From Escherichia phage HY01: DNA of 64,000 nt. The DNA lies in sequence record NC_027349.1; one strand, 5' to 3'. Both the position numbers and the translations under genes were made by a program. The notes below the pieces were generated by a model, which saw nothing but the letters and a program-made list of their open reading frames with translations, did not search any database and was not told the origin of the DNA. Shown piece by piece: positions 30,090 through 36,117 of the stretch (positions within the stretch are counted from its first letter, which is position 1; each line of letters starts with the position of its first letter).

Positions 30090-30563
30090 TTATTTGAATG
30101 ATTTAACGTACTGAATAGAACCTTTACTATTTACAAAGGCAATTTTACCATTTTTATTGTACATAGTAGCAGTACGCTGATAACCATAAGTTTGTTTACC
30201 AGATTGATAACCAACTAATGCGAAATTATCTTCGCCCATTTTATTCTGTTTAGCGCGGATGCGTTCATGACCGTGTGCCATAAGAACCTTAGCATCACCA
30301 GTTGAAATTGATCTACGAGTTTTTTCATCTTCAACTGTATTAACAAAGTCGTCAAATGAATCAAATTTAGCATGGGATTTATTATACAGTTTTCCATCTA
30401 CTGCATAATTATATCCCTGTACATCCATCTCAACTTCTGTACCATCATCCAATACAGCAGTGATTTTTTGACCTTTTTTAAATTTCAAAAGATCAGTAAA
30501 AGATTCAGCAATAATTTGAGAATTAATAGCTGCTTCAGTGATAAATTCTTGATATGTTTTCAT
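30090..30563 (-). CDS. Internal-protein-like capsid-targeted protein (157 aa)
   Basis: N-terminal capsid-targeting sequence MKTYQEFITEAAINSQIIAE with prohead-protease-type L/I-x-E sites. Confidence 0.65.
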   Translation of the reverse strand: MKTYQEFITEAAINSQIIAESFTDLLKFKKGQKITAVLDDGTEVEMDVQGYNYAVDGKLYNKSHAKFDSFDDFVNTVEDEKTRRSISTGDAKVLMAHGHERIRAKQNKMGEDNFALVGYQSGKQTYGYQRTATMYNKNGKIAFVNSKGSIQYVKSFK

Positions 30564-31579: not shown

Positions 31580-32035
31580 TTAAAAGAGGCTGTTCATTAT
31601 TCGGTAAAGTGAAGGACCCATCACATATTGCCACTGGGTACGAGGAATAAGAGCAAAAGCGTCCATCTCTGGAATCATAATGCCATCTTTATTTTCAAAA
31701 TAAGACTCACAATGGCAATTTCTAAACATCTCATGCTCTACTGGAATCGTATAATAAAATAACTGTAAGTCTTTATTACTAGAATATTTAAATACACCTA
31801 GGTCTTCTAGAAGGTCTGGATTATAATTGCTAAAACCAGTCTCTTCTAAACATTCTCTTCGTGCTGCATCTAGTGCGTTTAAATCAGAATTTTCTACGCG
31901 GCCCTTTGGGATATCCCAGCGATGTGCCATCATTCCAGGCTTACGAGAACCAGTAACCCGACCCATAAATAAATCTTTATCTTCTGTCATAAAGATAATA
32001 CCAGCCGATAATGTTTTCATTTTAATTTCCTGCAT
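31580..32035 (-). CDS. nudE: Nudix hydrolase NudE
   Basis: 151 aa; Nudix box GRVENSDLNALDAARRECLEETGF. Confidence 0.85.
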   Translation of the reverse strand: MQEIKMKTLSAGIIFMTEDKDLFMGRVTGSRKPGMMAHRWDIPKGRVENSDLNALDAARRECLEETGFSNYNPDLLEDLGVFKYSSNKDLQLFYYTIPVEHEMFRNCHCESYFENKDGIMIPEMDAFALIPRTQWQYVMGPSLYRIMNSLF

Positions 32036-32505
32036 TCAGTGATAAAGTTATTTAAATTTTGAGTATATTTCTTTTCATCAAAAATCTTTTGTTGTCTGCG
32101 TAGCCGCCATGGCATTTCAATGAACGTGTACCATATCCCAGATAATATTGCTGCTGTAAAAATATTAACAAGTATGGTTAAAAGAATCCAATCTCCTATT
32201 CTGTCCATTGGATTTTTTATAAAAAAGTAAAATACGAATGATGTCACAGGAAGACTAATAATATACCACAGAATCATAATCTTATCTGTGAACCAATCAG
32301 CGTTCGTTAACTTAGCGCGACCATTATAAATACACACGAATTTATCATCTGTTGCAGTAGATGGCTTAACTGGTTGATATCCCATTCTAAACTCCCTAAT
32401 CAACAAATTTTTCATATCTTCGGAACAGCCATTCCAGTCAACTCTATCAACTGAAATGCCATCATCCCCATCATCTAAATCATACCAGCGAGTTTTTAAA
32501 ATCAT
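32017..32505 (-). CDS. Membrane protein (162 aa) with C-terminal F-I-x-E-C-R-K motif
   Basis: Two hydrophobic helices; C-terminus NNFITECRKLK. Confidence 0.55.
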   Translation of the reverse strand: MILKTRWYDLDDGDDGISVDRVDWNGCSEDMKNLLIREFRMGYQPVKPSTATDDKFVCIYNGRAKLTNADWFTDKIMILWYIISLPVTSFVFYFFIKNPMDRIGDWILLTILVNIFTAAILSGIWYTFIEMPWRLRRQQKIFDEKKYTQNLNNFITECRKLK

Positions 32506-32864
32506 TTAATTTTCCTGCAATCGCTCACAAACTCTTTCATTGATTCATTTTCAATATAAGACATGTAGCTATTGTATTCTTTTAATTGTATTTTGTAATC
32601 CTTTTTTCTTTGCCAATTTATTTTAAAATTATCATAATGAAAATATAGTATAGTGCCAAAGAATGAAAATAATGAAATCGCTATAGTAAAACGAAGTTCA
32701 CTCCAAACCTCTGTTATAATTGCTGAACCATCGATGTTTAAAATAATACAGTCAATCATTAATCCAATAAGACTACCAGCAAGAGCTGCAAATACTGACA
32801 CGGCAAGAATTAATAGTGCCTCGGGAAACGAATATTTGACTTTATTTAGTTTTGGCTTTTGCAT
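32502..32864 (-). CDS. Membrane protein (120 aa), paralog-like
   Basis: Two hydrophobic helices; C-terminus KEFVSDCRKIK. Confidence 0.55.
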   Translation of the reverse strand: MQKPKLNKVKYSFPEALLILAVSVFAALAGSLIGLMIDCIILNIDGSAIITEVWSELRFTIAISLFSFFGTILYFHYDNFKINWQRKKDYKIQLKEYNSYMSYIENESMKEFVSDCRKIK

Positions 32865-33247
32865 CGTGATTCCTTAACAAATTTCATAATTTCGTTAAAT
32901 TCATACATATCTAGTTTAAGCTGGTGTTCCTTTTTAATCTTTTTACACTGAGCTTTCCATTCACGTACGCGTTTACGATAATGTCTTCCTTGATACCAGT
33001 ATCCTACCCAATTTACAGGTACTAATAAAAATGGAACTATCATTGGAAGAATTAGTGTTGACACAAATATTACATCAAATTTATTAGCAGTCATAACGTC
33101 TATAACCATTCCAGCTATAAATGATACAACTACAACAGGACCCATTAATACATCGGTAGAAATTATCTGGCGCTTTAATTCATACTTCAAAGGTTTACTT
33201 GGAAGGTATAGTGATGGCTTTGACATATTCTCTACATTCCTTAACAA
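32846..33247 (-). CDS. Membrane protein (133 aa by track; track start codon is TTG, probable ATG at about 33226)
   Basis: Two hydrophobic helices; C-terminus MKFVKESRCKSQN. Confidence 0.5.
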   Translation of the reverse strand: MLRNVENMSKPSLYLPSKPLKYELKRQIISTDVLMGPVVVVSFIAGMVIDVMTANKFDVIFVSTLILPMIVPFLLVPVNWVGYWYQGRHYRKRVREWKAQCKKIKKEHQLKLDMYEFNEIMKFVKESRCKSQN

Positions 33248-33809
33248 ATTTTTCTAGTAATAAATCGCTTTCAAAATTAGGATTTTCTACGAATTTATCA
33301 AAAAGATCATCAACAACAGTCAAGATATTCTTTTTACTAAGAATACGCTTATTTTCATATTTTGTTTCAGAGTCAACTATAAGAGTAAAGAAATATTTCT
33401 TTCCCTGAAATTTTACCGTAGTATCAATATAAAATAAATTTGACTTTTGTAAATTACGTTTAAACCCTGCGTCACTTAAACTGTAAACGCCAAGATAATC
33501 ATAATCGTCGTTTAAATAACAAACTGTCCATTCAGGGGAAACGAAATCAGTAAATTCAACATCAAAATCACACGTCAATGAATGAATTGATTCAATACTT
33601 TTAATAAGTATTCCAGGGCGTATTAAAGACTTTTTACCTCTATAAAATCTTCCAGAAAGACTTTCATCAGTTTCATATGAAGACCCCCAATAGTAATTAC
33701 GTCCTTCTGCCATACGTTTAAGAGCATTTAGTAATTGGTCTGGAACATCAACCTGTCTTTGGAACTCTTCAAACATTGAATTGAAATCACTTTGCATTTT
33801 CATTTTCAT
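33195..33809 (-). CDS. Hypothetical protein (204 aa)
   Basis: ORF track; C-terminal EKFVKECREYVKA resembles the motif of the three downstream membrane proteins. Confidence 0.55.
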   Translation of the reverse strand: MKMKMQSDFNSMFEEFQRQVDVPDQLLNALKRMAEGRNYYWGSSYETDESLSGRFYRGKKSLIRPGILIKSIESIHSLTCDFDVEFTDFVSPEWTVCYLNDDYDYLGVYSLSDAGFKRNLQKSNLFYIDTTVKFQGKKYFFTLIVDSETKYENKRILSKKNILTVVDDLFDKFVENPNFESDLLLEKFVKECREYVKAITIPSK

Positions 33810-33828
33810 TCCTATTTACTCCAAGTAT

Positions 33829-33846
33829 AAGGGGCCGAAGCCCCTT
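33829..33846 (-). terminator. Tetraloop hairpin AAGGGGC-CGAA-GCCCCTT
   Basis: Perfect inverted repeat between ORFs 33851-34444 and 33195-33809. Confidence 0.5.
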
Positions 33847-33850
33847 ATCA

Positions 33851-34444
33851 TTATTTCAGAGAATTAATGTATTCCTGAACATCGGCAGAGGTAGTTTCAA
33901 CCCCGGAAATATTACCGTTAAAGGTTTCAACTCGAGCAAGAGTATCTTCAATATCAACCTTAGTTAGCGCTGCGATTTCAACTACATCATCAGCAGTACT
34001 AATTCCAAGGGCATTTGCCGCACGAGTTTCACGGATATATTCCAATTTAACTGCAAGTTCTTGACGAGCATCATCTAACTCAACTACTTTCTTGGCGATT
34101 TCAATTCGCATTTCAGCATAACCATCAGCTTTAGTAGTCAACTGCTCAGCTGTTCGACGATATAGTAAACCGAGCTTAGCATGCATTGTTACATCTTGAC
34201 CTTCGGAAAGAAGTTTGCGAATTTCACGCTCTTTTGATTCGGCTTGTCGATTCTTTTCGATAACAAGTTCACGAATACGTTTTTCTTCATTAATAGATTT
34301 AACAGAAGCAGTTTTTAGGTCTTTAATTTTATCAAGAAGTTTTGCTGCTGCAGCAGTATACTGTTCTTCAACAGATAGATTTTTAGCCATAGCAGAACCA
34401 AGTTTAGTGCGAATAAACTCAACAATTTTCTTCAGTGTGTTCAT
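33851..34444 (-). CDS. Coiled-coil protein (197 aa), PspA/IM30-like architecture
   Basis: Predominantly helical, charged heptad-like sequence; similarity to PspA is architectural only. Confidence 0.5.
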
Positions 34445-34487
34445 AGTATTTCCTTAGGTTGATTAAAAATTAAAATCTATGGAAGAA

Positions 34488-35003
34488 TTATATCATGCTA
34501 TTTAAGAGATGTAAACTATTTTTAATTTTACAAATTCGTTCAGCTTCTTCAACAGCGGCGATAATGCTTTTAGCTATAGGAGTACTAATACTAGTAGCTT
34601 TTACACTTAACACGATTTCTTTATCTTTACCAGGCCAACCCCACGATTTTTCACCGTGAGTGCCTTTAATTACAGCAGACACCTCAAGTGAGCATCCATT
34701 ATCATATGTTTTTACATTGACAACCCAAGGTTCACTTTTCTCAATCGGTTTATCCCAGTAAATATTAAGAATACGTGGGACATCAAATTTGGCAGGACAA
34801 ATCTTAACCGTAAGACCTTCGCTTTCTAGCCAATTAATAAGAGGGCGTTCATACAGGCGACGATGTGGGCTTGGGATTCGACAAGCCTTATGTCCGTTGC
34901 TTGCGGCTTCACTAAGCTGTTCTAATACCTGCTTTTGCATTATTGATAAGATACCATCAAAAGATTTTTCGGAAGTTTCATTCAGTTCGGTATAAAGAGA
35001 CAT
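34488..35003 (-). CDS. Hypothetical protein (171 aa)
   Basis: ORF track. Confidence 0.55.
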   Translation of the reverse strand: MSLYTELNETSEKSFDGILSIMQKQVLEQLSEAASNGHKACRIPSPHRRLYERPLINWLESEGLTVKICPAKFDVPRILNIYWDKPIEKSEPWVVNVKTYDNGCSLEVSAVIKGTHGEKSWGWPGKDKEIVLSVKATSISTPIAKSIIAAVEEAERICKIKNSLHLLNSMI

Positions 35004-35530: not shown

Positions 35531-35560
35531 AAAGCCCCAACCTTTTGGTCGGGGCTAAAA
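35531..35560 (-). terminator. Rho-independent terminator hairpin (GCCCCGACC-AAAA-GGTTGGGGC) plus U-run
   Basis: Near-identical copy of the hairpin at 36090-36117; 3' of the ip-like gene. Confidence 0.55.
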
Positions 35561-35562
35561 TG

Positions 35563-36036
35563 TTATTTGATTTGTTTAGCAGACCAAATGCGGTCTTTAA
35601 TAATTTTTTGGATGTCTTCAACATACTCAAGAGAGTGAGCATGTGGATTATCTTTGAAACTATAAGCGCGGGCTAACTTTTGGCCTTCGGTTTTGATTAC
35701 TAAAAGCTCTTTAAGGATAGCTTCATATTTAGCGATAATTCCTTTAACGATATTTTTTTCTTGTGCAGCTTTAGGATCTGCTTTAGGAGCAGGTTTACCT
35801 GAAGCCTTTGCAAAAGCAGCGCCAGTAGCAACTAAACTTTTCCAGGCCATACTAACTGCATTTCCCGTAAATCCTTCTGCTTTCATGTCGCGAGCAAACT
35901 GGAATCGTGATTCGTCAGAAGCATCTTTATAGGAATATTTACCCGCTGCAATGGCTGCTTTTGCGACAGCTTGAATTTCGGTGCTAGATGCTTCATTTAA
36001 CACCGCTTCATTTAAAAATTGAGCATATGATTTCAT
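35563..36036 (-). CDS. Internal-protein-like capsid-targeted protein (157 aa)
   Basis: N-terminal MKSYAQFLNEAVLNEASSTE with L-x-E protease-type sites, resembling IP capsid-targeting sequences. Confidence 0.6.
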   Translation of the reverse strand: MKSYAQFLNEAVLNEASSTEIQAVAKAAIAAGKYSYKDASDESRFQFARDMKAEGFTGNAVSMAWKSLVATGAAFAKASGKPAPKADPKAAQEKNIVKGIIAKYEAILKELLVIKTEGQKLARAYSFKDNPHAHSLEYVEDIQKIIKDRIWSAKQIK

Positions 36037-36089: not shown

Positions 36090-36117
36090 AAGCCCCAACC
36101 TTTCGGTCGGGGCTAAG
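36090..36117 (-). terminator. Rho-independent terminator hairpin (GCCCCGACC-GAAA-GGTTGGGGC) plus U5
   Basis: Strong GC stem followed by TTTTT on the minus strand; ends the small-RNA/tRNA transcription unit. Confidence 0.55.

Follow-up and report, generated by a model that had tools for sequence, protein, structure and literature searches.

The window described here, a stretch of 64,000 nucleotides (nt) of Escherichia phage HY01 (NC_027349.1), contains four consecutive genes whose products end in variants of one short peptide—the C-terminal tail considered in this article. All features located in the window lie on its minus strand. By position and profile match, the four genes are the orthologs of e.5, e.4, e.3, and e.2 of phage T4; the annotations of T4 and of Escherichia phage PEC04, a Tequatrovirus that is 100% identical to the window, were used for comparison. 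The gene order e.6, e.5, e.4, e.3, e.2, nudE, e is the same in both annotations, and the four proteins are 78–100% identical to the T4 counterparts encoded in the same order between e.6 and nudE. e.2–e.5 are already known, annotated genes, and the 3-kb region is present, at a coverage of 80% or more, in 496 phage records. The first tail carrier, e.5 (33195..33803), encodes a soluble protein of 202 amino acids (phrog_2607, E 4.5e-109). It is followed by two genes for two-helix membrane proteins: e.4 (32846..33226; 126 amino acids; phrog_2604, E 1.1e-63), which has orthologs in five genera and whose hydrophobic helices are placed by hydropathy at ~33095–33151 and ~33011–33073, and e.3 (32502..32864; 120 amino acids; phrog_2330, E 1.8e-57), with helices at ~32742–32816 and ~32640–32696. 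The last member, e.2 (32017..32505; 162 amino acids; phrog_2203, "membrane protein," E 3.2e-79), is laid out as a soluble N-terminal domain of 77 amino acids and a two-helix hairpin (~32218–32274 and ~32119–32190). All four PHROG matches are end to end. The array is headed by e.6 (33851..34444), which codes for a conserved, predicted coiled-coil hairpin protein of 197 amino acids and is always the first gene of the block. On the 3′ side lie nudE (e.1; 31580..32020), a Nudix hydrolase gene with translational coupling to e.2 by means of an ATGA overlap, the lysozyme gene e, and denV.

Translation of the minus strand yields four open reading frames (ORFs) with the C termini that a preliminary description of this DNA had read: e.2 ends in ...NNFITECRKLK, e.3 in ...KEFVSDCRKIK, e.4 in ...KFVKESRCKSQN, and e.5 in ...EKFVKECREYVKAITIPSK. 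The coordinates given there hold for e.2 and e.3, whereas two starts need correction. The annotated start of e.5 is 33803 instead of 33809, and e.4 most probably starts at the ATG at 33226 rather than at the TTG at 33247; the PHROG profile of e.4 begins at residue 8 of the TTG ORF, and the T4 and PEC04 annotations give the ATG. With e.4 starting at this ATG, its overlap with e.5 is 32 nt and not 52 nt, the upper end of the range of 4–52 nt reported before. The lower end is correct (e.3/e.2 and e.2/nudE, 4 nt each), and e.4/e.3 overlap by 19 nt.

The tail itself is read as FVKECR in e.5 (33231..33248, within the predicted C-terminal helix), FVKESR in e.4 (32864–32881), FVSDCRK in e.3 (32511–32531), and FITECRK in e.2 (32026–32046). 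The soluble upstream protein e.5, hence, carries the same tail as the membrane proteins, as had been noticed, and e.4 bears a degenerate variant, FVKESRC, whose orthologs have S, I, or V in place of C. The pattern F[VI]x[ED]CR gives three six-frame matches in the 64 kb, all of them in the cluster, compared with 0.13 expected from shuffles. Likewise, a C-terminal [FW][IV]xxC[RK] is found in three long ORFs of the window, all in the cluster (0.08 expected), and in none of the long ORFs of T4 1–50 kb and 100–169 kb, the 119 kb judged to lie outside the window. These counts show that the tail is not due to chance. Across phages, the motif spans ~12 residues with the consensus [LIVF]-[EDN]-x-F-[IV]-x-[ED]-C-[RK]. 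Herein, positions −3 and −2 were absent from the search pattern, and their conservation was seen after alignment on the motif: 91–100% of instances have a hydrophobic residue at position −3, and most have Glu, Asp, or Asn at position −2. Position +8 is hydrophobic in 70% of the soluble carriers. The hydrophobic positions −3, 0/+1, +4, and +8 line up on a single helical face, and the model of e.5, although of low confidence (predicted local distance difference test [pLDDT] 54), has a helix at residues 175–196. In e.4, a second, internal tail-like segment, REWKAQCKKIK (32933–32959), is located ~28 residues before the true end. It resembles the ends of e.3 and e.2 (CRKIK and CRKLK), and its Trp is invariant in e.4 orthologs; e.4 may be an older tail-bearing protein that acquired a second tail.

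Kyte–Doolittle windows show two hydrophobic helices each in e.2, e.3, and e.4 and none in e.5 and e.6. The net charge is +3 to +9 after the second helix, +3 at the N termini of e.3 and e.4, and 0 to −3 in the short loops; for e.4, the values are +3, 0, and +9 for N terminus, loop, and C terminus. Because of this charge distribution, the positive-inside rule places the tails in the cytoplasm, and e.2–e.4 are predicted to be hairpins with both termini inside. Hydropathy and charge topology, therefore, agree with the earlier proposal of small membrane proteins with two helices and a cytoplasmic tail for all three proteins.

Whether conservation resides in the peptide or in the nucleotides was addressed by codon analysis of 28 tail instances from 12 phages of at least 11 genera. 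Phe is encoded by TTT in 16 instances and by TTC in 10, and Cys by TGT in 13 and by TGC in nine. All six Arg codons occur at the Arg position, with Lys in five cases, and six different codons are used at the Ile/Val position. The start codon of the next gene lies 17–32 nt past the Phe codon in 17 of the 28 instances; in the other 11, it follows at 35–276 nt, which is too far for a ribosome-binding role. Since the codons vary freely and the next start is remote in these 11 instances, the conservation of the tail is at the protein level, and the question that had been left between protein and nucleotide is answered in favor of the former. A nucleotide element—a ribosome-binding site, a coupling signal, or an RNA structure—had been put forward as an alternative source of the similarity. 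It draws on the 17 nearby starts and on the AAGGA or AGGA within the tail codons, which is correctly placed as a Shine–Dalgarno sequence. In the membrane-protein genes, the Shine–Dalgarno sequence of the next gene is indeed contained in the tail codons (AAGGA in K-E or AGGA in C-R-K), 6–11 nt before the ATG, and that of nudE is the AGGA in the e.2 codons for C-R-K. It cannot, however, account for F, I/V, C, or the hydrophobic position −3, and an Rfam scan of 30–38 kb returned the tRNA cluster only, with no match in the array region. As the cause of conservation, such an element is essentially refuted and retains hardly any probability; as a secondary, overlapping constraint, the Shine–Dalgarno sequence is real.

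The distribution of the tail was followed from e.6 outward. A survey anchored on e.6 covered 18 named T4-like phages of 12 genera (Tequatro-, Mosig-, Gapriver-, Kanagawa-, Jiaoda-, Karam-, Biquarta-, Ishiguro-, Pseudoteven-, Braga-, Gualtar-, and Muldoonvirus) plus unclassified Straboviridae. In all 18, the first gene after e.6 ends in the motif or in a form close to it (Y for F, K for R, or A for C), and in most, small membrane proteins with the same tail come next. A second set comprises 41 e.6-anchored loci from IMG/VR, 39 of them with full flanks, in which plus-strand ORFs were counted in the 4 kb downstream and upstream. In 37 of the 41 loci, the strict motif is present in the ORF that directly follows e.6; of the remaining four ORFs, two are e.5 genes with frameshifts and two have the variant F[IV]NYCI. 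Among the 39 loci with full flanks, 91 of 452 ORFs downstream of e.6 are tail carriers, as opposed to one of 395 upstream. The tail is confined to the block headed by e.6. The 88 distinct carriers come from many Straboviridae genera and consist of 39 membrane proteins—84–179 amino acids, mostly with two helices and with 0–7 residues after C[RK]—and 49 soluble proteins, which are either e.5-like (~150–290 amino acids) or belong to a family of ~95 amino acids. The family of small membrane proteins with a conserved tail that had been suggested is, hence, real and much larger than noted.

Soluble and membrane carriers occur together in nearly every locus, which raises the possibility that the tails pair with each other. 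Soluble e.5-like proteins would then be tethered to the membrane via the tails of e.4, e.3, or e.2, and the single conserved Cys per chain might take part in a shared metal site or a redox-sensitive link. The heptad-like spacing of the hydrophobic positions suits such helix–helix packing, there is one invariant Cys per tail, and the overlapping stop and start codons favor cotranslation. In some loci of the 44RR2 type (L053, L054, and L060), however, the carriers within 4 kb of e.6 all seem to be soluble; e.4 has no Cys at the motif position; and the strict position after e.6 is left unexplained. Pairing of tails is, therefore, considered possible but somewhat unlikely.

The proteins that bear the tail differ strongly from each other. 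Between the e.4 and e.3 families, profile comparison gives a match in the 39 C-terminal columns (hhalign probability 90%, E 1.6e-6), and both have an N-terminal M-x-[KR]-P-x-L; because of these two features, e.3 and e.4 are probably tandem paralogs. The similarity between the e.5 and e.3 families, by comparison, is limited to the 15 tail columns. For clustering, 51 membrane proteins were used, i.e., the tail-bearing carriers and homologs from reference phages, some with degenerate tails; they form six BLAST clusters, and 15 once the last 16 residues are masked. When 37 e.3 sequences are aligned (36 cluster representatives and e.3 of PEC04), conservation is highest in the cytoplasmic C-terminal half, to which F, D, C, R, and K belong, and the helices are variable. 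The e.5-like family, whose genes are placed directly after e.6, is small: 1.84 billion proteins yield 10 representative clusters at E<1e-3, and F-[IV]-x-x-C-R is retained by all members of full length; in an alignment of e.5 from 11 genera, F186 and C190 are the only invariant columns. A homolog of e.2 in phage 212 is 29–34% identical and ends in NSFIEECRK. The motif thus has the character of a modular tag: the tail stays constant on bodies that diverge rapidly. Concerted change of motif variants within a genome was considered as well and rejected: Bragavirus has Y for F in all three carriers, but Morganella phage MP1 mixes Y and F tails. Some e.3 homologs (P0005, P0010, P0011, and P0028) bear public names that include "sulfurtransferase" and "DNA primase"; because no profile search backs either name, these are probably annotation errors spread between records.

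A constant end on variable bodies could also be an evolutionary leftover: tandem duplication would have copied junction cassettes, which are kept by dual coding and gene conversion, with the peptide itself being inert. The e.5/e.4 and e.4/e.3 junctions do share 16 identical nt (AAATTTGTTAAGGAAT) in Tequatrovirus, a stretch of 30 nt is 77% identical between the e.3/e.2 and e.2/nudE junctions, and the N termini of e.3 and e.4 (MQKPKL and MSKPSL) are encoded in the overlapping frame. Moreover, the array is plastic. In phage UFV10 (locus L005, 2501–2821), a single gene of 106 amino acids replaces e.4, e.3, and e.2; it takes the N terminus and the beginning of helix 1 from e.4 and the remainder from e.2 (junction GPV|TSF) and is, judged by its sequence, a natural in-frame deletion chimera of two array members. 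Depending on the genus, an array comprises one to three or more membrane-protein genes, the tail being canonical or degenerate, and the repeated tail/start junctions can serve as short homologies for duplication, fusion, and loss of cassettes. Against an inert peptide speaks that the 16-nt identity is specific to Tequatrovirus and absent in Mosigvirus, whereas the motif is kept in different genera, encoded by every synonymous codon, and also at sites that no other gene overlaps. The bodies have diverged beyond recognition and the tail has not, which is the signature of purifying selection on the peptide. This explanation is, hence, regarded as very unlikely.

The gene that heads the block, e.6, has homologs in 1105 phage records. 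Its AlphaFold2 model is a hairpin with a pLDDT of >90, and 13 of the 14 best Foldseek matches are Vipp1 or ESCRT-III structures, with most alignments being nearly full length. Independently, the depositors of phage KLB31 noted "shock protein A" for an e.6 homolog. The explanation favored here, tentatively and as one that may well be right without yet being probable, is that the tail serves in the cytoplasm as a helix by which its carriers dock to one shared partner, most likely e.6, in a module that acts on the membrane early in infection. Dispensable proteins that diversify rapidly, both membrane-anchored and soluble, would attach via the tail to one partner at the inner face of the cytoplasmic membrane. 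This partner would most likely be e.6, as a coiled-coil hairpin with a predicted fold like that of Vipp1, PspA, and ESCRT-III. Docking of the tail to e.6 would parallel the engagement of PspA by PspB and PspC, and by the same analogy, the module may act on membrane integrity or remodeling. A further-reaching version is rated as unlikely: e.6 would be a phage ESCRT-III/PspA-like protein of membrane remodeling or repair, into which diversifying adaptors plug by one docking helix, and the whole would be a counterpart of the Psp system that manages the host membrane during infection, its bodies being in an arms race with hosts or competing phages.

Several observations weigh against the docking of the tail to e.6. 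The link between the two is one of synteny only. Sequence comparison does not reproduce the predicted fold similarity of e.6: it has no Pfam match at E≤1, a profile of eight e.6 sequences finds no PspA, Vipp1, or ESCRT-III member among the sequences of the PDB, and its hhalign probability with a manually entered sequence of Escherichia coli PspA is 0.2%. The model of e.5 is too poor to distinguish a free tail helix from one packed on the domain, and the Cys at the motif position is lost in e.4 orthologs. Outside the Straboviridae, Salmonella phage aagejoakim of the Ackermannviridae possesses a true e.6 homolog (hhalign 98%; locus L062, 3399–4787). The next two genes there code for membrane proteins whose C termini do not show the canonical tail: an internal FIESCE is present in one, and the second, of 55 amino acids, ends in ...LQIVDKARKRRSK. 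The idea that, in the Ackermannviridae, the neighbor of e.6 is a membrane-anchored e.5 domain was dropped (hhalign E 0.19). Finally, the CRISPRi-ART study lists T4 e.2–e.6 as of unknown function and unknown essentiality and scores their knockdown as "Not Fit," i.e., without laboratory fitness effect (PMC11879866, supplementary files 8 and 15). In addition, the e.2 gene of reference T4 (102 amino acids; T4 67.5–68.0 kb; locus L003, 3480–3965) is shortened by a frameshift, which stems either from a lesion in the laboratory strain or from an early sequencing error; the sequence re-enters the frame later, so that NNFITECRK is still readable, and e.2 is intact with 162 amino acids in PEC04 and most relatives. 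e.2–e.6 are dispensable in the laboratory, and given neutral knockdowns and a frameshifted e.2, any function of theirs must be conditional.

Alternatively, the tail might be addressed to the host. It would then be a signal for a host factor (a membrane or cytoplasmic protease that uses it as a timing degron for early proteins, or another hub), and the bodies would be effectors in superinfection exclusion, lysis timing, or counter-defense. Its position at or near the extreme C terminus of the membrane carriers fits such a signal, fast-diverging bodies with a constant tail are expected of arms-race effectors, and the depositors of phage Muldoon named two such proteins "putative holin or antiholin." The hosts, however, belong to Escherichia, Klebsiella, Aeromonas, Proteus, and Serratia, and because they span five genera, the target would need to be very conserved. 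To our knowledge, the tail resembles no known class of degron. With respect to defense or exclusion, PADLOC-DB profiles gave no match at E≤1 for e.2–e.7, and scans of the same proteins against Pfam and NCBIfam revealed no significant family. With respect to lysis, e.2–e.4 match no holin family in Pfam, PHROGs, or NCBIfam, and T4 has its annotated holin (t) and antiholin accessory (rIII) at other sites in the genome. A holin role is weakly disfavored also because the site upstream of e.6 resembles an early promoter, whereas late expression is expected of a holin. A host-directed signal is accordingly judged distinctly unlikely.

The array and its tail can be compared with three known systems. 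PspB and PspC bind PspA through their cytoplasmic parts. In the array described here, e.6, with its predicted hairpin fold reminiscent of PspA, Vipp1, and ESCRT-III, adjoins small cytoplasmic-membrane proteins with predicted cytoplasmic C termini. By sequence, e.2, e.3, and e.4 stand outside the PspB and PspC families, as they have no Pfam or NCBIfam match above threshold. Imm of T4 has two membrane helices. Like Imm and Sp, e.2–e.4 are small, nonessential membrane proteins among early-region genes, with imm being annotated in T4. Compared with e.2–e.4, however, Imm has no detectable similarity and no common tail, is encoded elsewhere, and does not form a multicopy array. The capsid-targeting sequence (CTS) of T4 internal proteins is a precedent for a modular address tag in T4. 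It, too, is a short terminal peptide on otherwise unrelated proteins in the same plastic genome region. Yet, the CTS is N-terminal, is cut off by the prohead protease, and serves to package proteins into the head, whereas the tail is C-terminal and resides on membrane proteins that cannot be packaged. A CTS-like nature of the tail (EFIxE) was rejected, as its Glu is not conserved across genera.

e.2–e.6 are among the many uncharacterized genes of the best-studied phage, and they are not mentioned in the main text of two T4 functional-genomics papers. In the open-access literature, no report was found of the shared tag, its spread over the Straboviridae, its strict linkage to e.6, or the ESCRT-III–like model of e.6; likewise, nothing relevant was found on phage PspA or Vipp1. 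If the tag is a docking helix, it represents a testable organizing principle, with one conserved handle for many variable bodies beside a conserved coiled-coil protein. If it binds e.6 and e.6 is of the Vipp1/PspA type, this would be a virus-encoded module for membrane maintenance or remodeling in bacteria, with a defined peptide interface to mutate. Regardless of its function, the motif is a practical marker that groups ~15 or more families of small phage membrane proteins that ordinary homology search cannot link.

As to further annotation, e.5 homologs bear PF26876 (precomputed annotation), and a PDB sequence search with e.5 and e.6 gave no match. The block begins with an early-type promoter-like site (34487..34515) just upstream of e.6; it reads TTTACA, a spacer of 17 nt, and TG-TATAAT and is a consensus match only (11 of 12 positions). 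There follow e.6, a hairpin, and then e.5, e.4, e.3, e.2, and nudE, whose stops and starts overlap from e.5 to nudE. The hairpin between e.6 and e.5 (33827..33848) has a perfect GC-rich stem of 9 bp and a UUCG loop and lacks a T-run (−15.6 kcal/mol, z −2.7). In KAW3E185 and MP1, the corresponding sites carry a terminator annotation; the hairpin may set the expression ratio of e.6 to e.5–e.2 or stabilize the e.6 mRNA.

The block is flanked by two genes of 157 amino acids each (30090–30563 and 35563–36036) with N termini of the capsid-targeting type (MKTYQEFITEA... and MKSYAQFLNEA...), which, by these termini, probably encode internal head proteins other than the T4 ipII and ipIII found at the corresponding positions. 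The gene at 35563–36036 is bracketed by near-identical terminator hairpins (35533–35556 and 36091–36114; AGCCCCGACC-loop-GGTTGGGGCT followed by TTTT) and looks like a gene cassette with a repeated terminator on either side. Downstream of the membrane-protein genes, several other genera have a second tandem family (L004, 3231–4025; L006, 3191–4459; L008, 4716–5790; L010, 4302–4828; and L064, 5438–6240). It consists of small soluble proteins of 65–106 amino acids that end in G-x-W-[VIL]-S-S-S-x-x-C or a related -SSC and thus constitutes another array with a C-terminal motif, absent at this position in PEC04 and T4.

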